DNA from: Acidobacteriota bacterium
GTDB taxonomy: Bacteria; Acidobacteriota; UBA4820; DSQY01
Length of the DNA stretch: 11,197 nucleotides
Direction: 5' to 3'
NCBI GenBank assembly: GCA_037445535.1
Contig: JBBIKI010000023.1
Location: 1-11,197, forward strand
The translations under genes and the position numbers were made by a program. Of the stretch, positions 1 through 11,197 are shown one piece after another (the first letter of the stretch is position 1; each line of letters starts with the position of its first letter). The notes beneath the pieces are model-generated. The model had not been told where the DNA came from, did no database searches, and saw only the letters and a list, made by a program, of their open reading frames with translations.

Positions 1-164
1 TCTCCGGTGCCTGCGCCCTCTCGGGGGGCACCTTCGCGGGAAGCCCCGCCGTCGCGGGCATGCCCGAGGACATTCCCGTGGACCTCGTCATCCCCGGATG
101 CCCGCCCCACCCCCTCACCGTCCTCGACGGGCTTGTGCGCCTCCTCGGGCGGCTCAAAGGATAA
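1..164 (+). CDS. 3' end (C-terminal ~54 aa) of a NuoB-family / group-4 [NiFe]-hydrogenase small subunit (complex I 20-kDa subunit family); 5' end lies outside the window
   Basis: Frame 3 translates to ...SGACALSGGTFAGSPAVAGMPEDIPVDLVIPGCPPHPLTVLDGLVRLLGRLKG*. The (I/V)PGCPP(R/H)P motif and the preceding GGxF segment are the conserved C-terminal signature of NuoB / HycG / EchC-type subunits (fourth Cys ligand of the proximal Fe-S cluster). The TAA stop is at 162-164. The ORF track shows this frame only as part of a spurious downstream ORF. Confidence 0.75.
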   Translation, partial: SGACALSGGTFAGSPAVAGMPEDIPVDLVIPGCPPHPLTVLDGLVRLLGRLKG

Positions 165-206
165 GGCTCGCCCCTGAGACACGGGAAAGGATAGGGAGAA
201 GATTCA

Positions 207-422
207 CCACGGAGACGCGGAGGACGCGGAGAAAAGAGGAGACAAGGACCTGGCGAAAGATTGAGATTCGTAAGAACAAAGCGAGGCAGATCAGGCGAGC
301 ATGTCCCAGTGAACATCGCAGAGAAAGCGAGAAGGACGTCGAGTCCACTTCCTTTTGTTTGCATGGATGGTGTGCTCAAGATTTGTCTTTCATCTTCCTC
401 CGTGTTCTCCGTGTCTCCGTGG
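207..422 (+). ncRNA. Candidate structured 5' leader / cis-regulatory RNA of the AmpG-like gene: 25-bp closing stem (207-231 with 398-422) around a ~166-nt purine-rich, GGA-rich interior
   Basis: Arm 207-231 CCACGGAGACGCGGAGGACGCGGAG pairs with arm 398-422 CTCCGTGTTCTCCGTGTCTCCGTGG over 25 consecutive positions: 22 Watson-Crick pairs plus 3 G-T positions. These are G-U wobbles only if the transcript is the + strand; they would be C-A mismatches in the - strand transcript. The left arm carries 4 GGAG motifs and the right arm 3 CTCC motifs. The interior 180-345 is ~80% purine with about 10 GGA motifs. The element ends 15 nt before the SD (GGAG, 438-441) of the CDS starting at 450. Confidence 0.35.
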
Positions 423-449
423 TGAAGGGGTTTCTCCGGAGTCAGTCTG

Positions 450-1955
450 ATGGTGGATGAAGCGGGGCGGGTGCAAGCGGACGAGGGGCAGCGGGCGTGG
501 CCGCCGGCTTGGGCGATTACGACCTACTTTGCCGAGGGCTTTCCGTACAGCCTCGTGCGGCAGATCTCCACGGTCTTCTTCAAGGATCACGGGGCGAGCC
601 TCCAGGCCATCGGCCTCACGTCGCTCTACGGCCTGCCGTGGGTCCTTAAGGCCTTCTGGGCGCCCGCCGTGGATGCCTTCTCCACCAAGCGCCGGTGGCT
701 CCTGGGCGCGGAAGTGGCGCTCGTGCTTGCCGTGCTCGCCATGGCGGCGGGCTCCTCGCTCGCGAACCCGCTCGAGGCCGTTTCGGTTCTGTTCCTCCTC
801 ACGGCCTTCCTCTCCGCCACGCACGACATCGCCGTAGACGGCTTCTACCTGGAGGCGCTGGACCGGGAGAGCCAGGCGCGCTTCGTGGGCTACCAGGCCA
901 TGGCCTACCGGCTCGCCCTCATCGCCGGCGGCGGCGGCGTGGTGTGGTTCTCGGGCGTCACCGGGTGGCGCGCGGCCTTCGGGCTCGCCGCAGGCGTCAT
1001 GTTCGCCCTCTTCCTCGTTCACGTCTTCCTGCTGCCCGCCCGCGAGACGCCCAAGCGTCCCATGCACGAACTTCTGCGCGTGCTCCTGCGCCCCAAGGCC
1101 CTGGGAGGCCTCGTGCTGGCGGCGGCGGCGGTGGGCGCGGCGTGGTGGGTGTGGGGCATGCCGCGTGTGCAGGCGTGGATCGCGCCGTCCAAGCCGCTCC
1201 TCGGCAAGATCGGCCTCCCCGGTCTTATCACCGCCGGACTGGTGGCGATCCTCCTCGTGCTCCTGGTGAACCTGGGCCGGCTCAAGCGCCGCCTCGAAGC
1301 CTCCGGTTCCTTCTACGCCAAAGCCTTCGTGGACTACCTGGACCAGCCCCGCATGGGCGTCGCCCTGGCATTTCTGCTGACTTACCGAACGGGCGAATCG
1401 GCCCTCCTCGCCATGGTCTACCCGCTCCTCAAAGATATCGGCATCAACCGGGCGCAGTACGGCATCCTCTACGGCACCTTCGGCATTGCCGCGTCCATCG
1501 CCGGGGGTATTTTGGGAGGGTATCTCATCTCCAAGTTTACGCTCAGGCGCGTCATTTGGCCCCTCATGCTGGCGCAGAACGTGCCTCACCTGCTGTACAT
1601 GGCCCTGGCCCTCGTTTACGGTCATCTCGTGGGGCACCCCGAGATGGGCGCCGCCAGCCCCTTCGTCGTGGGGCCCTTCGTCGTCATGGAAGCCTTCGGC
1701 GCCGGTATGGGTACGAGCGTCTTCATGGTCTTCATCCAGCGCACCTGCAAGGCGCAGAACAAGGCCGCGCACTTCTCCATCGCCACCAGCGTCATGAACA
1801 TCAGCTCCACCCTCGCAGGCGTGCTCTCCGGCTACCTCGCCGCCTTCATGGGCTGGCCCCTCTTTTTCGGCTTCACCTTCCTGGTGACCATCCCCAGCAT
1901 GGCCCTCATCCCGTGGCTGCCGAACCTCGGCCGCCCCGCCGCCGGGAAGTCCTGA
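450..1955 (+). CDS. MFS transporter, AmpG family (muropeptide / acetyl-CoA-type permease family); 501 aa
   Basis: ATG at 450 with GGAG 8 nt upstream. The N-terminus YFAEGFPYSLV...GLTSLYGLPWVLKAFWAPAVDAFSTKRRWLLGAEVALVLAVLAMA and the later SATHDIAVDGFYLEAL and GMGTSVFMVFIQRTCKAQNKAAHFSIATSV segments follow the E. coli AmpG pattern (GLPLAL...KFLWSPLMD...RRRGWLL...SASQDIVFDAW...GGMGTSAFVALLMTLCNKSFSATQFALLSA). About 12 predicted TM helices. The antisense ORF 390..1772 is low-complexity junk. Confidence 0.85.
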   Translation: MVDEAGRVQADEGQRAWPPAWAITTYFAEGFPYSLVRQISTVFFKDHGASLQAIGLTSLYGLPWVLKAFWAPAVDAFSTKRRWLLGAEVALVLAVLAMAAGSSLANPLEAVSVLFLLTAFLSATHDIAVDGFYLEALDRESQARFVGYQAMAYRLALIAGGGGVVWFSGVTGWRAAFGLAAGVMFALFLVHVFLLPARETPKRPMHELLRVLLRPKALGGLVLAAAAVGAAWWVWGMPRVQAWIAPSKPLLGKIGLPGLITAGLVAILLVLLVNLGRLKRRLEASGSFYAKAFVDYLDQPRMGVALAFLLTYRTGESALLAMVYPLLKDIGINRAQYGILYGTFGIAASIAGGILGGYLISKFTLRRVIWPLMLAQNVPHLLYMALALVYGHLVGHPEMGAASPFVVGPFVVMEAFGAGMGTSVFMVFIQRTCKAQNKAAHFSIATSVMNISSTLAGVLSGYLAAFMGWPLFFGFTFLVTIPSMALIPWLPNLGRPAAGKS

Positions 1956-2080
1956 TCAACGGCTGCCCTCCAGCGGGGAGCGGCCTACGCGGCCAGATGA
2001 GACGCGCGGGGGCGCCAAATGGGAGATCCTGTGGGGCCAGAGCTCGATCAACGTGGCGATGAAGGCTGGGTGGAACCGTC

Positions 2081-2701
2081 TCACCCGCCCAGGAGGCCTC
2101 GGACGCCGAGCCAGAGCTCGTAGGCGCTGAAGCAGGCCAAGGCCACGGCGGACATGCCCAGCACCATCCTGCGCACCCTCTCCCCGATGCCGCCCAAGGC
2201 GCTTGCGGCCACGATGATGGCCACGGTGACGGCGATCATTGTGGTGTAGAAGCCGGCCAGCAACGCCAAGGCGCGGAGTCCCCCTTCGTGCCAGGCCTTC
2301 ACGGCGAGCGGCCCCATCACCAGGCTCCAGCCGATATACGGATTGGGATTGAGCAAGTTGACCAGGGTCGCCTTGAGGAGGCTCTGTGCTCCCGAACGCA
2401 GCTCCGGCTTCGTCTCTGCACTGAAACGGCGCCACGCGCCAAACGAACCGGCAGCGAGGAAGAGGAGGAAGACACCGCCGCCCAGTTGGAGCACCGAGAC
2501 AAGCACCTTCGGAACCTGGACCAGGATCACGAGGACGAGAGCGGCGACGGGGCCGTCGCTCAGGAGCGGGGCGAAGGCCGCGGGCCACGTGCGCCGCCAA
2601 CCGGCCGTCACGGATTGCGACACGATGTACGTCTGGTAGGGCCCGGGCTGGGCCGCGGCCGTAAAGGCGTAGACCACCCCGATCATGAGGAAGCCCAGCA
2701 T
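2081..2701 (-). CDS. LysE/RhtB-family amino-acid (homoserine/threonine-type) exporter, 206 aa
   Basis: ATG at 2701 (plus strand shows cat 2699-2701). The N-terminus MLGFLMIGVVYAFTAAAQPGPYQTYIVSQS and the internal LVNLLNPNPYIGWSLVMGPL match the LysE/RhtB signature (compare the RhtB segment FVNLTNPKSIVF). Six TM segments. The start lies 1 nt after the TAG stop (2703-2705) of the upstream small ORF, so the two are tightly coupled. Confidence 0.8.
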   Translation of the reverse strand: MLGFLMIGVVYAFTAAAQPGPYQTYIVSQSVTAGWRRTWPAAFAPLLSDGPVAALVLVILVQVPKVLVSVLQLGGGVFLLFLAAGSFGAWRRFSAETKPELRSGAQSLLKATLVNLLNPNPYIGWSLVMGPLAVKAWHEGGLRALALLAGFYTTMIAVTVAIIVAASALGGIGERVRRMVLGMSAVALACFSAYELWLGVRGLLGG

Positions 2702-2702
2702 G

Positions 2703-2900
2703 CTAAGAGTCCTGAAGGCCTCGGGACTGGGCGAGGGTCAGGGAAGAGGCTTGGAACCATTCCTTGGCGCTCTCCTTGGAGAGCACGATGACCGTGCAAA
2801 CCCCGAGAACCGTCCCGAAGGGCATGAACATGCAGGCCATGCCAGCCACGGTGTAATGGAAGATGGACACAAGCCGAAGATGTTCATCATCCTGAGTCAT
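2703..2900 (-). CDS. Small (65 aa) hypothetical membrane protein with one or two TM helices, co-transcribed with the LysE-family gene
   Basis: Internal ATG at 2900 (Met16 of track ORF 2703..2945; the track M at 2945 is not an ATG with an RBS). A strong SD GGGGGAG sits 7 nt upstream on the - strand. Product MTQDDEHLRLVSIFHYTVAGMACMFMPFGTVLGVCTVIVLSKESAKEWFQ... has a hydrophobic core. It lies in the lower-GC island together with the DUF1003 gene. No family recognised. Confidence 0.45.
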   Translation of the reverse strand: MTQDDEHLRLVSIFHYTVAGMACMFMPFGTVLGVCTVIVLSKESAKEWFQASSLTLAQSRGLQDS

Positions 2901-2971
2901 GGGTTCTCTCCCCCTTTGAGATCCGCCTCTTGCCGCTCCCGTCATGCCCGACGGGCGCTCAAAACCATCGC

Positions 2972-3532
2972 TTATGGATTCTTCTTGAAGTCTTCCGCGA
3001 GCTGGCTCAGAAGCGAAAGCTGGTCCTGCTGCATGGCGATGAGTTCACGCCATTGTTTCTCCCTGAGGGAGTCAAGTTTCTCGTGGAGCGTCATGATCTC
3101 GAGCTCCGACTTCAGGTTGACTTCGTAGTCGTGCTCCGCGCTCAGCCGATCCTTAGCGGCTTGCCGGTTCTGAGACATCAAGATGATCGGGGCCTGAATG
3201 GCGGCGAGCATAGACAACACGAGATTCAGCAGAATGTAAGGGTAAGGGTCAAATGCTTTTCGGAGTGTGACAAGAACGAACGAATTCAGGCCGACCCAGA
3301 CAACCATGACGGCCGCGAAGATCGAGATAAAGGTCCATGAGCCCCCGAAGCTCGCGACTCGATCCGCCATTCTCTGGCCGTACGTCATTTGCTCGGAATA
3401 GTCCTTGAGAACATTTCTTGAAATATGGGTTCGATTGGCGATGTGGTGAGCGACGTGCTTTTCTCGTTCGCTGAGCCGCTCATATGCCGTATGCAAATGC
3501 TTCTCGGATACTTGGTCCGCGTTCCCATTCAT
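2972..3532 (-). CDS. DUF1003-family integral membrane protein (about 186 aa from the ATG at 3532; the track ORF extends to a GTG at 3565)
   Basis: GSWTFISIFAAVMVVWVGLNSFVLVTLRKAFDPYPYILLNLVLSMLAAIQAPIILMSQNRQAAKDRLSAEHDYEVNLKSELEI is the characteristic DUF1003 (PF06210) core (FDPYPFILLNL..S..AA.QAP.I.MSQNRQ..DR...E.DY.VNLK.E). The ATG at 3532 has GGAGGA 8 nt upstream. The GTG at 3565 has no SD. GC content (~52%) is clearly below the window average. Confidence 0.8.
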   Translation of the reverse strand: MNGNADQVSEKHLHTAYERLSEREKHVAHHIANRTHISRNVLKDYSEQMTYGQRMADRVASFGGSWTFISIFAAVMVVWVGLNSFVLVTLRKAFDPYPYILLNLVLSMLAAIQAPIILMSQNRQAAKDRLSAEHDYEVNLKSELEIMTLHEKLDSLREKQWRELIAMQQDQLSLLSQLAEDFKKNP

Positions 3533-3803
3533 GGCGCAATCCTCCAGGTTTTCGTCCAAGTTCACTCCGCAGCCGCCGCCATGGCATCACGAAACAAGAT
3601 CCATGAACAGGGAAGGCGGCGAACATAAGGGGCAGGCGCCAAGTCTTCGGCCATGCGTCCTCGCCTCACGCCGATCGCCCCTCCTATTGCCGTTGGAGCC
3701 ACCTTGAGGTGGCGATGGAGCAGAAGGACAACCCATCGGTCTGAAGGAGCGCTCTCAAGGGCACGATCCCTTTCCGTGGGATGGGCCATTCGGGTGTGCG
3801 GGT

Positions 3804-4871
3804 TCATGGCTCCCACTGGAAACCGCACCGCAGGCAGCGGTGCCAAGTCCGGGCGCCCAGGAAACGCTTGAACAGCAGGCCGAGGGCGCTCTCACCCGCG
3901 AAGGGAGGCGGCTCGCAAGGTTCGGTCTCCGGGCTCCCGCACTGGGAGCAGTGTATCGCCGCGCCGGCCACGGCGTCGCCGTCCCGGACGACGGGCAAAT
4001 CGGGAAGGGGAGCGCCCGCCGGGAATGCCTGGTCCCACACCTCGCCGCACACGGTGCAGAGGAACCGCACCGGACCGCCCTTTGCAACCAGCACGTCGTT
4101 CATGCTCAGGTGACGGGACAAACATCTCGGGCACTGCGGGCCTGCCGTGTCGCCGTCGTCCTCCGGGGAGGCCTCCGCGGGCGCCTCGGGAGGCGCTTCC
4201 ACGATCTCCTGCGGCACCGCCTCCAGCTCATGGCGCCGCGAGGGTTCCGCGCTCCCCCCGGCGGCGGCCGTTCCCGGTCCCTTGGCTTCCAGGGGCGATG
4301 GCCATCGGTGCTCGCAATTCTCGCACGCGCACCACGGGCCGTCCTCCGCCTGCTGCATGTCAAAGGCGTCCCGCGGCGGCGGATCCGCCGCCGTCACTCG
4401 GAACGATCCGCACGCCGGACAGGCCGCGGGAAGGATGGGGAAGGTGTCGCTCAGATAGACGGCCTCGGCCACGGGGGTCCGGCGACCGCAGTTCTGGCAA
4501 CGCAGCCACCAGCTTCCCAAAGGCGACTCGCTGGGCGTCACGGCGCAGAATTCCGTAGAATCGCACGATGTGCAGCGGACGTCCCCTCCGGCGTCCCCGC
4601 CGCTTTCCTCGTCCCGCCGGGCCAGCCTCGCCTCCGCCTCCGCGCGCCGTTCGCGGGGAACCTGGAGCCACACTCCCGCCGCCGCCTCGCCCAGAACCTC
4701 CGGAGGCGCCACGCGCCGGTCCAGGAGGGCGCAGGGCAGAGGAACGGCGTGCAAGAGAGCTTGGGTGTCCTCAGCCGGTTCCATTGATTCGAAGATTCTC
4801 AGCAGCTCCCACTGCTCCGGATCGTTCCCCGGAGCGGGCGATGCGGCCTTTTCTCCAACCACCGGCGCCAA
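3804..4871 (-). CDS. Multi-zinc-ribbon protein: four tandem MJ0042-like CxxC...CxxCG zinc-ribbon modules separated by acidic, Pro/Ala-rich linkers; ~355 aa; start uncertain (TTG 4871 vs ATG 4784)
   Basis: Four modules: (1) RCTSCDSTEF..x19..WWLRCQNCGRR; (2) CPACGSFRV..x22..WCACENCEHRW; (3) CPRCLSRHL..x19..FLCTVCGEVW; (4) HCSQCGSPE..x30..WHRCLRCGFQWEP*. Each has the aromatic residue before the second Cys pair and a Gly after it, as in MJ0042-type zinc fingers. The TTG at 4871 lies 4 nt after the TAG stop (4876-4878) of the flotillin gene, with GGAAAGG upstream, which fits translational coupling. The alternative ATG at 4784 has no clear SD. Confidence 0.6.
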   Translation of the reverse strand: MAPVVGEKAASPAPGNDPEQWELLRIFESMEPAEDTQALLHAVPLPCALLDRRVAPPEVLGEAAAGVWLQVPRERRAEAEARLARRDEESGGDAGGDVRCTSCDSTEFCAVTPSESPLGSWWLRCQNCGRRTPVAEAVYLSDTFPILPAACPACGSFRVTAADPPPRDAFDMQQAEDGPWCACENCEHRWPSPLEAKGPGTAAAGGSAEPSRRHELEAVPQEIVEAPPEAPAEASPEDDGDTAGPQCPRCLSRHLSMNDVLVAKGGPVRFLCTVCGEVWDQAFPAGAPLPDLPVVRDGDAVAGAAIHCSQCGSPETEPCEPPPFAGESALGLLFKRFLGARTWHRCLRCGFQWEP

Positions 4872-4875
4872 CCCG

Positions 4876-6960
4876 CTACACCTTTCCCGCCTGCTTGGGA
4901 GGTTCGCTCGCGGCGGCCCCGGACTGTCCCTTGGCGGTGATGAGGTTGGTGAGGTAGGCCGAGAGGAGCCCGCCGAGGTGGTCGCCGCCCTGCACGAGCA
5001 GGTCCGGCGTCACCTTCACGTTGCCCGAGGAGATCTGCTTGGCGATCTCGATGGCCGTCACGCCCTGCTGGCCCACGGCCTTGTTCTGCAGCTCGTAGGC
5101 CTTGGCCGTGGCCTCGCCGATGGCCAGGATCTTGGCGCCCTCTGCCTCGCCCCTGGCCTTGATGCCCGAGGCCTCGCCCACGGCGCGCAGGCGGATGCTC
5201 TCCCCCTCGCCCTCGGCGAAACGGATGGCCTTCTCCTTGTTCTGCTCGGCGATTTTCACCCCGATCTCCGCCTCCACCAGGTTCTTCTGCTGGTCCGCCT
5301 CGGCCCGCGTCTTCTCCGTGGCGATTCGCGTCTGCTCGGCCTTCTGCTGGTCCTGGTACATCGCCTGCTGCTGCTGGGCGATGATCTTCTTGGTCTGCGT
5401 GTCCATGAGGTCCTGCGGGAGGTTGATCTGGCAGATGAGGACCGAGACGCACTCCACGTGGTACTTCTCCAGCTCGGCCTTGGCCCGTTCCTCCGCCTTG
5501 CGCTGCTCCTCCTGGCGGTCCTGCATGAAGTTCATGGCGGAGGTGGAGGAGGCCTGGTTGCGGAAGCTCGAATCGATCATGGGATGGATCACGTGGAGGA
5601 TGAGGTTCTCGATGGAGCCGATCTTCGCCACCATGTAGGGCGCCTGGTCCGGCCTAACGCGGATGACCACCTTGACGGAGACGCTGATTTGGAACCCGTC
5701 TCGGGAGATGACTTTCAGCGGGTCGAAGCGTGTCTCCTTGCTGTCGTCCCAGTCGATGGTGATGTTGGTCGTGTCCACGATGTAGGCCATGAACGCCCGC
5801 AGGTTCAGATAGTAGAAGCCGGGCCCCGCCACCTCCTGCTGGATGCCCCGGAAGCCCTTCGGCACGACGTACCGCTCGATGCCCAGGTCCAGCCGGCCCT
5901 CCAGGGCCTCCCGCGCGCCTTCGCCGCCCTCCGTGCCCTCCCGCTTGGCGGCCTCCTCGATGAGCTGGCGCACCTGGGCGGGCTCCTCGCCCACGTTGGA
6001 GACCACCACGGCCACCTGGCCGCGCTCCACCACCGCCACGTTGTCCAGCTCCACTTTGAAGGCGAGCGGGTTGATGTAGTAGGTTCCCGGCTTGAGCACG
6101 TCGAACTGCGGTCCCCGCTGGCCGCCCGCGTGGAGGAACTTGGAGGCGTCCTGGAAATCGCTGTGGCCCGTCACCGGCTTGGCCACGTACTCCTTGTCGG
6201 GGAGGGGTTCGCCGTCCACGGCCGTCACCAGGCCCACGCTCTTGGCGGGGATGACGGTGGCGTCCATGATCTCCACCTTGAAGAGCGCCATGTTGATGCG
6301 GTAAGTGCCGGGCAGCAGGATGTCGATCTGCGGCCCCTTCTGGCCCCCCAGGTTGAGGAAGGCCTGGCCGTCCTCGAAATTGGCGTGGCCCTCCACGTGC
6401 TGGGCCAAAAGCCGGCCCGGCGGTATGGAGTGGCCGTCCATGGCGGTCACGAGGCCGATGCGCCCCTTGTCTACCACGATCGCCTTGGCCCGCGTCACCT
6501 TGAAGAGGACGGGGTTGATGCGGTACGTGCCGGGCGGCAGGATCTGGATCTGCGGGCCCTTCTCGCCCCCGCTCTTGAGGAACTGCTCGCCCTCCTGGAA
6601 GCTGTTGTGCCCCGGCACCACCTTTGCGAAGATCTTCCCTGGTTCCACAGGGTCGCCGTCGATGGATTCCAGGATGCCCACCTCGTCCTGGGCGATGGTC
6701 GTAAAGGGAACCTTGCTCACACGGTAAAGGAAGGGGACGAGCATGTGGAGTCCCGGCCCAAGCGTCCGCGCCTGGATGCCCACCTCGCCCGAGAGGGCCA
6801 CCACCCGGCCCTGGGCCATGTCCTTTCCGAAATACTTGCGCTCGATGACCGCGATCTGCGTCCCGCCCACGATGACCACGGCCTTCATCAGGAGAAGAAT
6901 GGCGGCCACACCCAGGACATAGGGCCCGTACAGCAAGGAAAACCTTACGACCTCCGACAT
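4876..6960 (-). CDS. Flotillin-family (YqiK-like) SPFH/band-7 membrane protein, ~694 aa, with an N-terminal module repeated in tandem
   Basis: ATG at 6960 with GGGAGGA 5 nt upstream (the track start at 7002 is a GTG without an SD). It has an N-terminal TM segment (FSLLYGPYVLGVAAILLLMKAVVIVGG), an SPFH core (ITIDWDDSKETRFDPLKVISRDGFQISVSVKVVIRVRPD..., compare the YqiK segment LITKDRMRVDVVVAFFVRVKPS) and a flotillin-type Glu/Ala/Gln-rich coiled-coil tail (QQQQAMYQDQQKAEQTRIATEKTRAEADQQKNLVEAEIGVKIAEQNKEKAIRFAEGEGESIRLRAVGEASGIKARGEAEGAKILAIGEATAKAYELQNKAVG). Stop TAG is at 4876-4878. Confidence 0.85.
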   Translation of the reverse strand: MSEVVRFSLLYGPYVLGVAAILLLMKAVVIVGGTQIAVIERKYFGKDMAQGRVVALSGEVGIQARTLGPGLHMLVPFLYRVSKVPFTTIAQDEVGILESIDGDPVEPGKIFAKVVPGHNSFQEGEQFLKSGGEKGPQIQILPPGTYRINPVLFKVTRAKAIVVDKGRIGLVTAMDGHSIPPGRLLAQHVEGHANFEDGQAFLNLGGQKGPQIDILLPGTYRINMALFKVEIMDATVIPAKSVGLVTAVDGEPLPDKEYVAKPVTGHSDFQDASKFLHAGGQRGPQFDVLKPGTYYINPLAFKVELDNVAVVERGQVAVVVSNVGEEPAQVRQLIEEAAKREGTEGGEGAREALEGRLDLGIERYVVPKGFRGIQQEVAGPGFYYLNLRAFMAYIVDTTNITIDWDDSKETRFDPLKVISRDGFQISVSVKVVIRVRPDQAPYMVAKIGSIENLILHVIHPMIDSSFRNQASSTSAMNFMQDRQEEQRKAEERAKAELEKYHVECVSVLICQINLPQDLMDTQTKKIIAQQQQAMYQDQQKAEQTRIATEKTRAEADQQKNLVEAEIGVKIAEQNKEKAIRFAEGEGESIRLRAVGEASGIKARGEAEGAKILAIGEATAKAYELQNKAVGQQGVTAIEIAKQISSGNVKVTPDLLVQGGDHLGGLLSAYLTNLITAKGQSGAAASEPPKQAGKV
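5773..6621 (-). repeat. Intragenic tandem repeat: four copies (three full of ~73-75 aa, ~222 nt each, plus a fourth fused to the SPFH core) of the flotillin N-terminal module
   Basis: Protein repeats: GHNSFQEGEQFLKSGGEKGPQIQILPPGTYRINPVLFKV / GHANFEDGQAFLNLGGQKGPQIDILLPGTYRINMALFKV / GHSDFQDASKFLHAGGQRGPQFDVLKPGTYYINPLAFKV / PKGFRGIQQEVAGPGFYYLNLRAFMAY. Each resembles the single-copy N-terminal segment of E. coli YqiK (AFVRTGLGGQKVVMSGGAIVMPIFHEIIPINMNTLKLEV). The periodicity is also visible at DNA level, e.g. 6092-6180, 6305-6420 and 6527-6630 on the plus strand. Confidence 0.6.
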
Positions 6961-7127
6961 GCAATCCTCCCAATTAAAACTGCACTCCGGCAGCCCGGCC
7001 ACGGGTCCTTTGAACCGGCGACGGGTGCGGCCCCTCGCGCGAACCCGTCCCCTTCGCCGTTCGGCCCGGCCTGCCAGTCCCTGTCACCATCATCCCCACG
7101 CATAGAGGATACCACCGGCGGCGCCCT

Positions 7128-7143
7128 CCGAACACTGGTTCGG
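7128..7143. promoter_or_regulatory. Perfect 6-4-6 palindrome CCGAAC-ACTG-GTTCGG in the divergent intergenic region between the flotillin operon and the small-protein/HD-GYP operon; candidate operator
   Basis: Seen directly in sequence. It lies ~48 nt upstream of the TTG at 7191 and ~170 nt upstream of the flotillin ATG on the other strand. No recognisable sigma-70 -35/-10 was found nearby. Confidence 0.2.
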
Positions 7144-7190
7144 AAGGCGTACACTGTCCACCGGCGCGAAGCCGGGGAGCCGAGGATCCC

Positions 7191-7376
7191 TTGACCTACA
7201 ATTTCGATCCCGGTCGCTGGTACGACAATCAGCGCGCGGCCCTTGAGGCACGGCTGGCGCGAGGCGAGCTGGGGCGGGATGCGTTCGAGGCGGCTCTAGA
7301 CGAATTGCAGCGGCGGCTGGAGGAGATGGAATCCCGGCTCGACGGCACCTTTCAGATTCCTCCGCCCAAGTCCTGA
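7191..7376 (+). CDS. Small (61 aa) hypothetical protein with a SHOCT-like motif; TTG start
   Basis: TTG at 7191 with GAGGA 4-8 nt upstream. Product MTYNFDPGRWYDNQRAALEARLARGELGRDAFEAALDELQRRLEEMESRLDGTFQIPPPKS. The segment LEARLARGELGRDAFEAALDEL resembles the SHOCT short C-terminal domain consensus (L.eL...G.it.eEFea.k..LL). It sits 70 nt upstream of, and on the same strand as, the HD-GYP gene. The overlapping antisense ORF 7090..7908 is judged spurious. Confidence 0.4.
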   Translation: MTYNFDPGRWYDNQRAALEARLARGELGRDAFEAALDELQRRLEEMESRLDGTFQIPPPKS

Positions 7377-7446
7377 CGCGACGCGGGCCAACCTTTTCCC
7401 TCTTCCCCGCAACTCTGCTACTCTGTTCCGGGGGGAGGACAACAGC

Positions 7447-8949
7447 ATGCCCGTTCAAGGCCAGAACGAGAGGCATCCCCGGGGGAAGCGCAAGGCGGGC
7501 GAGCTGGCGGCGCTTCGGGCGGTGGCCGCTGCCTGCGTGGAAGCGGCGGATGAACACGCCCTCATCGAGCGCGTCACGGACATCATCTGCGGGACCCTCT
7601 CCATCACCAATTTCGGCGTGATCCTCTACGATCTCAAGACCGGCCTTCTGCGGGACCACCCCTCCGCCCATCGCCGCAGGGGGAGCACGGCGCTGGAACT
7701 GGTCCTGGGCGAAGGCATCGTGGGAACCGTGGCCCTCTCGGGCCTTCCCAGGCGTGTCCCCGACGTCAGCCTCGATCCCATCTATCGCATGGGGGACCAG
7801 GATACGCGCTCGGAGCTGACGGTTCCCCTCAAGGTGGGCGATCAGATCATCGGCGTCATCAACAGTGAAAGCACGGAGCTGAACGCCTTCACGGAAGAGG
7901 ACGAACACCTGCTCATGGTCCTGGCCGGCCAGGTTGGGCCCACCATCGCGAGGCTCCGGACCATTCAGACCCTTCGGGACAGCGAGGAGAAGTATCGCGC
8001 CCTTTACGAAGACAACCCTTCCATGGTCCTCACGCTTGATGCCCGGGGGACCATCCTTTCGGTCAACCGGTTCGGCGCCCGGCAGCTCGGCTACTGCGCC
8101 GAGGAGTTGGTGGGGCGGTCACTCTTGAGCATCCTCCACCAGGAGGCCCGTGCGGACGCTCTTTCGCTGCTGGCCGGGCGGCTGGCCAAGCCCGGCGAGG
8201 TGGCCCAATGGGAGCGCCGCCACGTGCGGAGCGATGGAGGCGAGCTGATGCTCAAGGCCTCCGGCCGGGCCATCCGCGGAACGGACGGCGAGCCAGTGGT
8301 CCTGGTGGTCTGTGAGGACATCACGGAGCGGAAGCTGGCGGAGGAACGGTCCGAAGAGAGCCTCCGGCAGCTCGAGAAGCTCCTCGACGAAACCGTCCAG
8401 ACTCTGGCGGCGGTCGTGGAGGTGAAGGACCCTTACACGAGCGGCCACCAGCGGCGGGTCGTCCAGCTCGCCACGGCCATCGCCGGCCGGATGGATCTGC
8501 CTCCCTCACAGGTTCAGACGCTACGAGTGGCGGGCCTTCTTCACGACATCGGCAAGATCCAGGTCCCCTCCGACATCCTCTCCAAGCCGGGCAGCCTGAG
8601 CGATGCCGAGCGCACGATCATCCAGACCCACAGCGAAGTGGGTCACCGGCTTCTTCGGGGCATCTCCTTCGAGGGGCCCGCCGCGGAGATCGTCCTCCAG
8701 CACCACGAGCGCATGGATGGATCCGGCTATCCCAACCACCTCAAGGGGAGCGACATCTTGCTGGAGGCAAGAATCCTGGGCGTGGCGGACGTGGTGGAGG
8801 CCATCTCCAGCCACCGGCCCTACCGGCCCGCTCTCGGGATCGGGCATGCGCTGTCGGAGGTGTCCACCCTCTCGGGCGTCCTCTACGATCCGGCCGTGGT
8901 GGACGCGTGCCTCGGGGTCTTCGCAACAGGCGGTTTCGCGTTCGACTGA
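7447..8949 (+). CDS. GAF-PAS-HD-GYP protein (predicted c-di-GMP phosphodiesterase / signalling protein), 500 aa
   Basis: ATG at 7447 with GGGAGGA 8 nt upstream. It has an N-terminal GAF-like region (GEGIVGTVALSGLPRRVPDVSLDPIYRMGDQDTRSELTVPLKVGDQIIGVINSES), a PAS region (YRALYEDNPSMVLTLDARGTILSVNRFGARQLGYCAEELVGRSLLSI...VCEDITERKLAEE) and a C-terminal HD-GYP domain (HQRRVVQLATAIAG...LLHDIGKIQVPSDILSKPGSLSDAERTIIQTHSEVGHRLL...HHERMDGSGYPNHLKGSDI). Confidence 0.85.
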   Translation: MPVQGQNERHPRGKRKAGELAALRAVAAACVEAADEHALIERVTDIICGTLSITNFGVILYDLKTGLLRDHPSAHRRRGSTALELVLGEGIVGTVALSGLPRRVPDVSLDPIYRMGDQDTRSELTVPLKVGDQIIGVINSESTELNAFTEEDEHLLMVLAGQVGPTIARLRTIQTLRDSEEKYRALYEDNPSMVLTLDARGTILSVNRFGARQLGYCAEELVGRSLLSILHQEARADALSLLAGRLAKPGEVAQWERRHVRSDGGELMLKASGRAIRGTDGEPVVLVVCEDITERKLAEERSEESLRQLEKLLDETVQTLAAVVEVKDPYTSGHQRRVVQLATAIAGRMDLPPSQVQTLRVAGLLHDIGKIQVPSDILSKPGSLSDAERTIIQTHSEVGHRLLRGISFEGPAAEIVLQHHERMDGSGYPNHLKGSDILLEARILGVADVVEAISSHRPYRPALGIGHALSEVSTLSGVLYDPAVVDACLGVFATGGFAFD

Positions 8950-8954
8950 TACCG

Positions 8955-9428
8955 TCAGGCCGTCAAGCCAGCCGCGAGAAGGACCTGACGCAGCCCCACC
9001 CCATCCGCTTCGGTGAAGGCCGAGAGTGAGCGGCTGTCCAAATCCAGGACGCCCCAGCAAGAGCCGTCCGGTTCCAGACACGGGACGACCACCTCGGAAA
9101 GGTTGGCGGGGTCGCAGACGATGTGGTCCTCGCCCAGGGCGTGGACGTCCTCCACCACGCAAGGCGCCCGTTCGCGCCAAGCCTTGCCGCAGACGCCGTG
9201 GAGCCCGATGGGTGAGCACGCGGGCTTGGGGCGGCAGACGCGCAGGAGCAGAGCGTTGCCCGCCTCTGCGATCTCGTAGAAGCCGAGCCAGTCCACCCCT
9301 CGGCCTTGAAGATGGCGCCACAGAATGTCGGTGACGGCCTTCATTCGAGCCATGCGGTCCGCGCCGGGAGACATGTCCGTGCGGGCGGCGCCTTGGCAGG
9401 CGCCGTAGTCGCGGAAGGGCCTCGTCAT
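8955..9428 (-). CDS. msrC: Free methionine-(R)-sulfoxide reductase-type GAF-domain protein (fRMsr / YebR-MsrC family), 157 aa
   Basis: GLHGVCGKAWRERAPCVVEDVHALGEDHIVCDPANLSEVVVP matches the fRMsr signature (G.CG.A.......V.DVH...GHIACD..S.SEIV.P), including the three conserved Cys. The ATG at 9428 overlaps the upstream gene's TGA stop as ATGA (9425-9428). The stop at 8955-8957 is only 5 nt from the convergent HD-GYP stop. Confidence 0.75.
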   Translation of the reverse strand: MTRPFRDYGACQGAARTDMSPGADRMARMKAVTDILWRHLQGRGVDWLGFYEIAEAGNALLLRVCRPKPACSPIGLHGVCGKAWRERAPCVVEDVHALGEDHIVCDPANLSEVVVPCLEPDGSCWGVLDLDSRSLSAFTEADGVGLRQVLLAAGLTA

Positions 9429-10756
9429 GGTTCGTCAGCTCCCCCCAAGCCCTCCTCCGCCTCGGCGGCGGAGGAGCCCGAAAGGCCTCCCTCCTCGGCG
9501 GTCCAGGGAATCTCCGCGCCGATGGGGCAATAACGCTCGGGATACTCCGGGGCAATGAGGGGCGTGGCGCTGGTGCGGGCCAGGAAGCCCGCCAGGCGGC
9601 CCAGGAGGACGTAGAGGCCCGGCTGGACGTAGCGCGGCGGCCCTCCCTGAAGGGCCACGGGTTCGGGGCGAAGCATCTCCTGGACCAGGAAGCCACCGTG
9701 GCTCGCGCCCTCTCGGACGGCCTCCTTCCACGTGTCCAAGGGGACGAGTGAGCCCACCACCACGCCCCGGCCTTCGTACCCTCGTACGGGTTTGAGAACG
9801 AACTCGCCCGGGTTTGAGAGGAGGAGGTCCTCCATGTCCCGGGTCTTCCCATCGTGGTCCACGGGACCGGGACGAAGCAGGCGCGTCCACGGGATGCACG
9901 AGCCAAGCTCGGAGGCCAGGGGCGGCGGTAGGATGCGCGCGAAGGCCGGGTCCGAAAGGACCACGAAGAGGGCTTTGCTCCACGCCGGGTCGGTCCTGAA
10001 GCTCCCCGCGAAGCAAGCCGCTCCTTCAAGGTAGCTATCCAGGAAAGGGCGGATTTCGCCCGCGCGCCGGAAGGCCTCCTCGCTCACCACGCGCCGGTAG
10101 ACCAGGTTCACCTCCCCGGAAGGCCCCATGAGCGAGCCCTCCGTGAGGCGAAGAGCCCTGGGGTCCTCCACCGTGGCGGGGTAGCCCGAAGCCGTGAAGA
10201 AGGCGGCCAAGGCCTCCTGCTCGGACCGGGTTCCCACCTCCGCCCAATCCACGATGGCGATGCGCGGCCGCTCGGTGCCGCGCTTGTCCCACTGCCGGAA
10301 GCAGTGCAGGAGAGTGTCCAGAAGGCGGGCGGTAAGAGGGTAGTCTTCCTGCGGCATGCCGTGGCGCTCGCGCCACAGCTTCGTGAGAGCCGCCGAGTAA
10401 TGCCACCCCGCCGTGCCGTCCGTGTTGTACTCCATGAAGCGCGGGCCCCTCGGGAAGAGAAAGGAATCCCAGCGGCCCAGCGGGATGAGGGGACGGTAGC
10501 CCGGGTCCTTCAGGATGAAAGACTCCTGGAAGGCGCCGTAGCCAAAGAGGCGGCGAAGCGGCGGGTCCCTCGGAAAGGCCTCCACCACCACCTCGGCGGC
10601 GGCGCTCGCCGCCTCCACCGCGCGCCGGATGTTATCCACCTGGCCTTCCTCGGGGAGGAAGGGATGGTCCGAGACGGGCAGGGCGAAACCCCGAAACGAG
10701 ATGCCCCTCCCGATCAGCTCGTTGTCGGTCCAGGGGTGCGGCGGCGGCAGGCTCAT
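9425..10756 (-). CDS. Glutathionylspermidine-synthase-family (YgiC/YjfC-like) ATP-grasp amide ligase, 443 aa
   Basis: ATG at 10756. MEYNTDGTAGWHYSAAL resembles the E. coli YgiC segment LENNADTPTSLYEAA. FVLKPVRGYEGRGVVVG resembles YgiC YVVKPIFSREGANVSII (ATP-grasp KP..G.EG.G strand). The rest has similar spacing. It is coupled to the fRMsr-like gene by an ATGA overlap. The antisense/alternate-frame ORFs 8521..10029 and 9435..10016 are judged spurious. Confidence 0.6.
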   Translation of the reverse strand: MSLPPPHPWTDNELIGRGISFRGFALPVSDHPFLPEEGQVDNIRRAVEAASAAAEVVVEAFPRDPPLRRLFGYGAFQESFILKDPGYRPLIPLGRWDSFLFPRGPRFMEYNTDGTAGWHYSAALTKLWRERHGMPQEDYPLTARLLDTLLHCFRQWDKRGTERPRIAIVDWAEVGTRSEQEALAAFFTASGYPATVEDPRALRLTEGSLMGPSGEVNLVYRRVVSEEAFRRAGEIRPFLDSYLEGAACFAGSFRTDPAWSKALFVVLSDPAFARILPPPLASELGSCIPWTRLLRPGPVDHDGKTRDMEDLLLSNPGEFVLKPVRGYEGRGVVVGSLVPLDTWKEAVREGASHGGFLVQEMLRPEPVALQGGPPRYVQPGLYVLLGRLAGFLARTSATPLIAPEYPERYCPIGAEIPWTAEEGGLSGSSAAEAEEGLGGADEP

Positions 10757-10836
10757 GAACGCTCCAGCAGAGCCCTATACCACGAAGGCCGGCCTGCCCG
10801 CAAGGCGGAAGCGATAATGCGGGACGAGAGACGAAC

Positions 10837-11084
10837 GGGGTCAGGTCTTGTAATCACACATGCCAGCGTCATGGGGTGGCCTTCGGCATGTTGCAGCTTC
10901 TGGTGGCGTGGTAATGCCATCAAACAGCAGGTTTGGCTGAACAGGCCGCGTAGGGCCAGGGTACGTCAAAGAATCTCAAGGGCCGCGCCCGGCCCTCGTG
11001 GTTCCGTAAGATGCCCCGCGCCCTCGCACGGCCGTGTAACCCAAGATTGGCATGGCCTAATGTATCATTACAAGACCTGACCCC
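10837..11084. mobile_element. ~248-bp element bounded by near-perfect terminal inverted repeats (MITE-like) or, alternatively, a structured RNA with a long closing helix
   Basis: Left 10837-10856 GGGGTCAGGTCTTGTAATCA; right 11065-11084 TCATTACAAGACCTGACCCC, whose reverse complement is GGGGTCAGGTCTTGTAATGA. That gives 18 contiguous identical bp, extendable to ~23/25. The interior (~52% GC) contains the internal hairpin GGGCCG-cgcc-CGGCCC (10980-10995) and no ORF with an RBS. It sits 80 bp upstream of the ATP-grasp gene start. Confidence 0.35.
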
Positions 11085-11122
11085 ATTGTTGTTTGTTCTT
11101 GGCGAATCAGCGGCGCTTCATC

Positions 11123-11178
11123 CTTTAACTTTCAACTCTCACCTCCCAACTCTCAACATTCAACTTTCACCTCCCGTC
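11123..11178. repeat. Tandem heptamer array, about 8 units of TYTCAAC (CTTTAAC TTTCAAC TCTCACC TCCCAAC TCTCAAC ATTCAAC TTTCACC TCCCGTC), at the window edge
   Basis: Seen directly. It also reads as a 17-bp direct repeat TTCAACTCTCACCTCCC (11131-11147) / TTCAACTTTCACCTCCC (11159-11175) with 28-bp (4 x 7) periodicity. The region is low-GC and pyrimidine-rich on the + strand. It is truncated by the window end. Confidence 0.4.
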
Positions 11179-11197
11179 CATCGCCTTCAGACGGACC

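Follow-up and report, generated by a model that had tools for sequence, protein, structure and literature searches.

The 11,197-nucleotide stretch of DNA analyzed here (contig JBBIKI010000023.1, positions 1 to 11,197; hereafter, the window) comes from an Acidobacteria metagenome-assembled genome and has a G+C content of 62–72%. On its minus strand lies a complete gene encoding a protein of the SPFH family, which is the subject of this work and carries a tandem array of small modules between a membrane anchor and the SPFH core (Table 1). The open reading frame (ORF), counted from a GTG codon, spans 4876–7002 and comprises 708 amino acids (aa). The true start is likely the ATG at 6960, because a GGGAGG motif precedes it and homologues begin at the equivalent Met; the resulting protein of 694 aa agrees with the length of ~690 aa given in a prediction previously made from the letters of the window (the original prediction). 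Residue numbers in this text are counted from this Met, and numbers in the ORF track are higher by 14. Public data hold an exact 694-aa match (P0001), and JAKAKG010000063 is 99% identical to the window. An 874-aa ORF antisense to the gene (4570–7194, plus strand), together with several other long overlapping ORFs, is a spurious open frame of high-GC DNA and not a gene.

Table 1. Features of the SPFH-family gene and annotated neighboring genes, in window coordinates.
Feature	Residues	Position	Strand	Basis
MFS transporter		450–1955	+	
LysE-type translocator		2081–2701	−	
DUF1003 membrane protein		2972–3565	−	
SPFH-family coding sequence, complete, 694 aa (stop codon 4876–4878)	1–694	4876–6960	−	ORF list and start analysis
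C-terminal tail, one predicted helix, variable end	645–694	4879–5028	−	AF2 model and conservation
Long helical region (predicted coiled coil, EA/Q-rich)	521–644	5029–5400	−	Full-length AF2 model, low confidence
SPFH α/β core, equivalent of the vault "shoulder"	403–520	5401–5754	−	
R4, fifth module, joined to the SPFH core	316–402	5755–6015	−	hhalign, repeat HMM, and start of Band_7
R3, full 74-aa repeat	242–315	6016–6237	−	Repeat HMM, E = 9.5e-31
R2, full 74-aa repeat	168–241	6238–6459	−	Repeat HMM, E = 3.9e-33
R1, full 74-aa repeat	94–167	6460–6681	−	Repeat HMM, E = 5.7e-31
R0, leader β-module, without the 17-aa insert	35–93	6682–6858	−	Band_7, repeat-profile, and QmcA matches
N-terminal hydrophobic membrane anchor	about 7–31	6868–6942	−	AF2 helix 2–27 and hydropathy
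Shine–Dalgarno-like GGGAGG, 5 nt upstream of ATG 6960		6966–6971	−	
GAF-PAS-HD-GYP (HD_5) signaling protein		7447–8949	+	
AF2, AlphaFold2; HMM, hidden Markov model; nt, nucleotides.

Assignment of the protein to the SPFH family is based on a strong match to Pfam Band_7 (PF01145, clan CL0433), which reaches 78.8 bits (cutoff 23.6; E = 6.8e-22), covers profile positions 16–175, and spans residues 386–556 in ORF-track numbering. The protein has the SPFH α/β fold and the layout of the family, with an N-terminal membrane element before the core and a long helix (CC1/CC2) after it; helices following the core are predicted at residues 521–582, 590–628, and 633–644 in a full-length AlphaFold2 (AF2) model that has low confidence in this region. 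The original prediction called the protein a flotillin. It is indeed an SPFH/Band_7 protein, but "flotillin" can be used only as a loose label, as Pfam returned nothing besides Band_7 at E ≤ 1, hence no Flot domain, and NCBIfam returned no significant family. Searches of Protein Data Bank (PDB) sequences with the full-family profile and the repeat profile found no solved SPFH sequence at E ≤ 0.01, the best solved relative being flotillin-1 with a weak match (E = 0.09) confined to the coiled-coil region. The Joint Genome Institute (JGI) labels of homologues alternate between YqiK and HflC, and a Rhizobium relative named "flotillin family protein" reaches 21 bits on the FloT model, for which the cutoff is 700.

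The array comprises five related modules, R0 to R4, that together occupy window positions 5755–6858. The three central modules, R1, R2, and R3, are full repeats of 74 aa each with pairwise identities of 47–50% in protein and 60–64% in DNA. Their Smith–Waterman scores of 190–193 compare with 23–25 ± 4–5 for shuffled sequences (z = 31–41), and hhalign aligns R1 with R3 at 3e-26. This self-alignment, which had been named as a check on the original prediction, thus detects highly significant internal repeats and bears out both the three full copies of ~73–75 aa that had been proposed and the estimate by eye of 60–70% identity between the DNA copies. Tandem Repeats Finder (TRF) missed the 222-bp period in the window DNA because the copies are too diverged for tandem-repeat detection at the DNA level.

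The two outer modules are related to the full repeats. R0 aligns end to end with the repeat profile (hhalign, P = 1.3e-5) and shows a gap of 17 residues exactly at the position of the motif GHxxFxxGxxFLxxGG in the full repeats, and R4 aligns at P = 4e-4. A broader repeat HMM additionally finds the second half of R4 (residues 362–401) at E = 2.9e-8 and the second half of R0 at E = 1.9e-6. The loop of R4 holds a variable two-helix insert at residues 328–361, with helices modeled at 301–313 and 320–330 in the numbering of the model. These alignments account for the leader module and the copy fused to the SPFH core that had also been foreseen. The array had been placed at 5773–6621; it does lie there, but this interval begins 20 residues inside R1 and omits R0. 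Residues D8, H25, Q44, and N56 of the repeat are invariant in every full copy and every orthologue, and invariant Gly and Pro predominate among the conserved repeat positions.

All 120 close homologues that we compared keep the order R1–R2–R3, which is present in 80 species-representative genomes. Three repeats are found in 108 of these homologues, with one extra R1-type copy in nine and two such copies in the remaining three. In the three-repeat proteins, R1, R2, and R3 are 72%, 72%, and 83% identical, respectively, to their counterparts in the window, so that conservation is highest in R3; between paralogous repeats, the average identity is 45%. Because orthologous repeats are 72–83% identical across phyla and paralogous ones only 45%, comparison of the copies shows an ancient, maintained duplication in which each copy has its own identity, as had been supposed. 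The contrary reading, that the array is an artefact of assembly or annotation or a stretch of low-complexity sequence, has a negligible probability and was rejected, given that the copies are merely 60–64% identical in DNA, that the array occurs in hundreds of independent genomes and metagenomes, and that the repeats are predicted to fold at a predicted local distance difference test score (pLDDT) above 90. Structure prediction yields folded, repeated modules (pLDDT 90.9) and not a disordered region.

The origin of the repeated unit can be traced through the outer modules. The N-terminus of the Band_7 profile (positions 16/17–43) matches R0 and the second half of R4; positions 17–43 are found on R0 alone at E = 0.023, and the match in R4 runs on into the core. 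R0 also aligns with residues 13–62 of Escherichia coli QmcA (hhalign, 37% identity, P = 5.8e-4; QmcA sequence checked against PDB 8z5g). R1 to R3, taken singly, gave no direct match to Pfam Band_7 or QmcA, nor did the repeat profile alone, and by these comparisons their link to canonical SPFH N-termini is transitive, running only via R0 and R4. Because R0 and R4 match both Band_7 or QmcA and the R1–R3 profile, the evidence supports identification of the multiplied unit as the β1-β2-β3 module that opens every SPFH domain. The central idea of the original prediction, tandem copies of the protein's own N-terminal SPFH module, is thereby supported by the Band_7 matches of R0 and R4, the alignment of R0 with QmcA, and a shared strand pattern. 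In an ECOD-based study from 2026, the lone module at the N-terminus of ordinary archaeal SPFH proteins is independently classified as an "MVP repeat", and the vault is treated as an elaborated form that has eight copies of this module in tandem (PMC13607799). The SPFH-module reading and a reading in terms of major-vault-protein (MVP) repeats therefore agree, since both name the same module (PMC13607799).

We then examined predicted structures. A first, full-length AF2 model built on a shallow alignment has a mean pLDDT of 64.7, with 70–87 in the repeats and 35–60 in the SPFH core, and its 16 best Foldseek matches in the PDB are all MVP, including crystals of MVP repeats R1–R7 only. A second model, of residues 28–520, used a more diverse alignment (55 sequences, with identities as low as 29%) and reaches a mean pLDDT of 90.9 and a predicted template modeling score (pTM) of 0.76. 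All five units in this model consist of strand β1, a loop with a short helix, and strands β2 and β3, and R4 carries two extra loop helices. The top nine Foldseek matches in the PDB are again MVP (E = 2e-11 to 1.5e-10), with alignments of 588–668 columns that cover the repeats plus the shoulder. Prohibitin, stomatin, erlin, HflK/C, and flotillin rank below MVP and align over ~213 columns, corresponding to R4 plus the core. With high confidence, the five units are predicted to fold into a rigid rod of small β-domains that superposes on the MVP repeats. The models thus display an MVP-repeat fold with end-to-end stacking as well as the domain order of the vault (repeats, SPFH shoulder, and long helices in the place of the vault cap helix), and the overall predicted architecture is a transmembrane anchor followed by five MVP-type repeats, an SPFH shoulder, and helices.

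Sequence comparisons with human MVP, the sequence of which was checked against the PDB, gave no significant match. The family profile and two repeat profiles aligned to it by hhalign with probabilities of ~1%; human MVP scored E = 0.03–0.06 against the repeat HMMs even as the sole target; and an alignment of the nine MVP repeats, as well as hmmsearch with its filters off, returned nothing significant. Only the PGTY...vEvvE..AtiI stretch (MVP 148–171) lines up with the repeat family, and the Pfam Vault and MVP_shoulder models match neither the 694-aa protein nor 15 distant relatives. By sequence, the protein does not belong to the MVP family, yet it is predicted to be built like MVP. The simplest reading is that bacteria and eukaryotes expanded the module independently, since the 74-aa repeats are much closer to one another and to R0/R4 than to MVP.

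The anchor and its flanks were compared in 106 family members. The best 19-residue segment has a mean Kyte–Doolittle value of 2.58, and the ~11 residues before the anchor contain on average 0.08 Lys and Arg, compared with 3.2 in the 15 residues after it. By the positive-inside rule, this charge bias would place the repeats and the SPFH domain in the cytoplasm. Conservation across phyla is 36% in the anchor, 68–83% in the repeats, 95% in the core, 89% in the helical region 521–644, and 51% in the C-terminal tail; the helical insert of R4 is conserved at 42%, compared with 88–97% for the strands. The high conservation of the repeats is as expected if many of their surfaces were packed in a large homo-oligomer.

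Close relatives of the protein form a subfamily that is 61–83% identical across many phyla and includes members from Acidobacteriota, Ignavibacteriota, Bacteroidota, Nitrospirota, Desulfobacterota, Spirochaetota, Myxococcota, Negativicutes, and other groups. At least 249 species representatives were found by a two-pattern scan, and isolates include Sporomusa silvacetica DSM 10669, Solidesulfovibrio aerotolerans DSM 16695, Geomesophilobacter sediminis, and Lucifera butyrica. Such identity across phyla suggests that the gene either spread horizontally or is under unusually strong constraint. With a profile built from the repeat alone, at least 1261 clusters at the 50% identity level were matched (E ≤ 1e-3) among 1.84 billion representatives. 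The survey of repeat number that had been recommended shows that copies vary: among the top 150 repeat-profile matches, the count ranges from 2 to 13–14, the array precedes, with few exceptions, a recognizable SPFH core in the tabulated proteins of at least 560 aa, and an N-terminal hydrophobic anchor is present in most and absent in some. Distant relatives, 28–34% identical, are annotated as "SPFH domain-containing" or "flotillin family protein", and none of the names seen mentions vaults.

Family members also occur on mobile and secondary replicons. Those on Ralstonia conjugative plasmids have R0, three repeats, and R4, those on large Rhizobium replicons have R0, two repeats, and R4, and further distant relatives are found on Clostridium and Streptomyces plasmids. 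The gene adjoins PRTRC system genes on the conjugative Ralstonia insidiosa plasmid pB1901 (L090) and is followed by genes for a DNA repair exonuclease and an AAA ATPase on Rhizobium phaseoli pRphaR650d (L089). An uncultured 642-kb phage (LR756502.1, positions 3001–4893; L091) encodes a 631-aa member with R0, two repeats, R4, and the SPFH domain that is 34% identical to the window protein, and several Vibrio phages (H14–H18) give more distant partial matches.

The largest proteins are found in filamentous cyanobacteria (Symploca, Okeania, Iningainema, and Microseira), where 7–14 repeats and an SPFH core are followed by a C-terminal VWA domain in chains of 1200–1800 aa. Some of these cyanobacterial proteins (P0121, P0122, P0123, and P0126–P0128) lack an anchor, and they are annotated only by a VWA or SPFH domain. 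In other relatives, the C-terminal domain is a zinc ribbon or a STAND NTPase. Two anchor-less repeat-SPFH proteins fused to an nSTAND1/AAA-type NTPase (P0210 and P0230) have an architecture reminiscent of conflict or defense systems; PADLOC defense-system models gave no match. In many-repeat relatives, matches to the CshA adhesin repeat (PF19076) sum over the repeats, each of them being below threshold.

We found no conserved partner gene, either in six genomic contexts inspected or by tblastn of the window neighbors against 88 loci. No NfeD or FtsH gene lies near the gene in the contexts inspected, and Rfam, promoter, and terminator scans around the gene gave nothing. Neighbors are shared just among the closest Acidobacteria, and none of the MFS, LysE-type, DUF1003, and GAF-PAS-HD-GYP genes of the window recurs beside SPFH-gene homologues. 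The gene behaves as a unit on its own.

Several features of the surrounding DNA merit description. A 355-aa ORF (3804–4871, minus strand) starts 5 nt after the stop codon of the SPFH gene and encodes eight CxxC motifs, arranged as four zinc-ribbon pairs; its Pfam matches are weak (DUF6510 and HypA), and it is kept downstream only in the nearest Acidobacteria (L010, with 63% identity, and L009). At an unrelated homologue locus (L005), an 88-aa zinc-ribbon ORF lies downstream of the homologue, and in P0132, a repeat-SPFH protein from a cyanobacterium, a double zinc ribbon is fused to the C-terminus. The association of zinc ribbons with repeat-SPFH proteins may thus be a recurring one. On the other side of the gene, the 486-bp gap to the divergent GAF-PAS-HD-GYP gene (6961–7446) has no Rfam match and no sigma-70-like promoter, and one gene caller places a 61-aa ORF in it at ~7191–7376 (plus strand). 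Beyond that gene lies a 443-aa ORF (9425–10756, minus strand) for which Pfam returned nothing up to E = 5. A 4-nt overlap between its stop and the start of a 157-aa ORF with a GAF domain (8955–9428, minus strand) makes translational coupling of the two probable, and the pair recurs in two other loci (L001 and L009).

Taken together, these results point to a membrane-tethered, vault-like SPFH cage with a wall height set by the number of repeats, a reading that we hold with a probability of roughly 0.6 and whose assembly is proposed by analogy with known relatives. The protein would be a single-pass, membrane-anchored SPFH scaffold with five modules in series between the anchor and the SPFH core. 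All solved SPFH proteins, the vault counted among them, form rings or cages (PMC12624060, PMC13100048). Because every solved member assembles in this way, we infer that protomers could pack laterally to make a membrane-bound ring or dome, probably on the cytoplasmic side. Like R1–R9 of the vault barrel, the stacked repeats would make up the lower wall; each additional one would raise the wall by roughly 2–2.5 nm and enlarge the enclosed space, and the protein would amount to a membrane-tethered "half-vault". A published regression that relates the number of subunits to CC1 length (y = 0.1782x + 10.22) gives about 21 subunits for a CC1 of 62 residues and about 30 if both helices are really one. 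A range of roughly 21–30 subunits may be suggested, although the estimate is weak because the coiled-coil model and its helix boundaries are of low confidence.

Some observations weigh against this half-vault model. The vault-like fold comes from prediction of a monomer, and the coiled-coil part of the full-length model has low confidence. There is no functional context, and neighbors differ in each lineage examined. In addition, the 74-aa repeats carry an insert, with the invariant D, H, Q, and N, that the ~55-aa MVP repeats lack, and this conserved insert may mean that the repeats serve in specific binding and are not purely structural. The last point leads to the main rival explanation, in which the array is mainly a periodic platform that binds a ligand, metal, lipid head group, cargo, or partner once per repeat. 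Such a platform, which is compatible with a cage, would explain an insert with an invariant His that is absent from R0, canonical SPFH modules, and MVP, the recurrence of D8, H25, Q44, and N56 in all copies and orthologues, and the presence in relatives of VWA, zinc-ribbon, or STAND NTPase domains fused to this array. Individual MVP repeats in vaults serve as docking sites for partners. We nevertheless consider it unlikely that binding is the main role, as a partner gene is conserved nowhere in the contexts examined, the repeat matches no known binding-domain family, and the dominance of invariant Gly and Pro suggests a structural constraint.

Alternatively, the repeats could be a passive spacer or stalk, flexible or laterally unpacked, that holds a conventional SPFH ring off the membrane, in which case the likeness to MVP would be convergent, small β-meander domains having come to stack in a similar manner. 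The lack of detectable sequence similarity to MVP is consistent with this idea, as is the fact that the repeats are closest to each other and to R0/R4, pointing to an expansion separate from that of eukaryotes; overall, we regard a passive spacer as quite improbable. An orientation in which the bulk of the protein faces the periplasm or the exterior, with the repeats forming an adhesin-like or envelope-spanning β-stalk, is very improbable. The weak summed CshA matches in many-repeat relatives and the VWA or peptidoglycan-binding domains of some relatives would fit it, but no single CshA stretch passes the threshold, the charge bias around the anchor in the 106 members favors a cytoplasmic C-terminal bulk, and some relatives either lack the anchor or are fused to STAND/AAA NTPases that need cytoplasmic ATP. 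Should the proposed assembly of the half-vault fail, a well-supported domain duplication in an otherwise ordinary SPFH protein would remain.

More tentatively, and as a reading less likely than not, we suggest that the family as a whole may represent widespread, undescribed bacterial "membrane-tethered half-vaults", in which a wall of tandem SPFH N-terminal modules is tuned in height by copy number (2 to about 14). If this is true, the vault barrel could derive from a membrane SPFH cage by tandem duplication of the module followed by loss of the anchor, and the anchor-less and VWA-fused cyanobacterial relatives would be intermediate forms. For the origin of the vault wall, the family offers a concrete route, namely duplication of the N-terminal SPFH module; its members form a natural series of repeat numbers that bears on how SPFH cage geometry is set, and they provide a bacterial system for asking what such cages enclose. 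Anaerobic and sediment bacteria from many phyla commonly carry it, and relatives occur in culturable or tractable hosts, such as Sporomusa silvacetica and Solidesulfovibrio aerotolerans, and, in a plasmid collection, on replicons of Ralstonia, Rhizobium, Clostridium perfringens, and Streptomyces.

Structural papers describe MVP repeat domains as unique to the vault and contrast vaults, which have repeats and no membrane motif, with canonical SPFH cages, which have a membrane motif and no repeats (PMC13100048). The present family joins both features in one protein. A literature search of incomplete coverage turned up no account of an SPFH family that is membrane-anchored and carries MVP-type repeats in tandem. 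According to a 2026 report, which adds Asgard homologues that have five repeats, MVP homologues among prokaryotes are known in just a handful of bacteria (PMC12962969). The bacterial ones, some from gliding bacteria and some from cyanobacteria, come from Myxococcales, Cytophagales, and Oscillatoriales (Daly 2013, PMC3762200; Sokolskyi 2019, bioRxiv 10.1101/872010). In the portions of these reports available to us, the published homologues have MVP-like repeats before a band-7 or shoulder domain and a helical tail, some being annotated as band 7; they were found by BLAST/PSI-BLAST or by reciprocal structural matches to MVP and were proposed to form MVP-like particles. A membrane anchor goes unmentioned in those portions, whereas the present family is anchored and invisible to MVP sequence searches. 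As far as these descriptions go, they set the published homologues apart from the present family, which is far more widespread.

The closest structural comparison is with MVP itself (PDB 4V60, 3GF5, and 9MXJ, among others), with which the protein shares tandem small β-repeats, an SPFH-type shoulder, and long helices in the same order, and, like MVP, the family is highly conserved. MVP has nine repeats of ~55 aa, whereas the present protein has five modules, three of them of 74 aa with a conserved insert. MVP is a soluble protein whose free N-terminal repeat joins the two 39-mer half-vaults to close the particle; the present protein differs in having an N-terminal transmembrane anchor at this position. 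Unlike that of MVP, its SPFH core matches Band_7 strongly, and the context of MVP (vault RNA, TEP1, and PARP4) is not found here, the window having no Rfam family and unrelated neighbors. With the canonical SPFH cage proteins (HflK/C, QmcA, YqiK/flotillins, stomatin, prohibitin, and erlin), it shares the anchor, the β-module, the core, and CC1/CC2, and homologues are accordingly annotated as SPFH, YqiK, HflC, or "flotillin family"; those proteins have one N-terminal module, whereas the present protein has five in tandem. Finally, the archaeal proteins that combine one MVP repeat with an SPFH domain (PMC13607799) contain the same type of module, there as a single copy (320–400 aa), whereas the present family is bacterial and carries the module as a tandem expansion on a membrane anchor.

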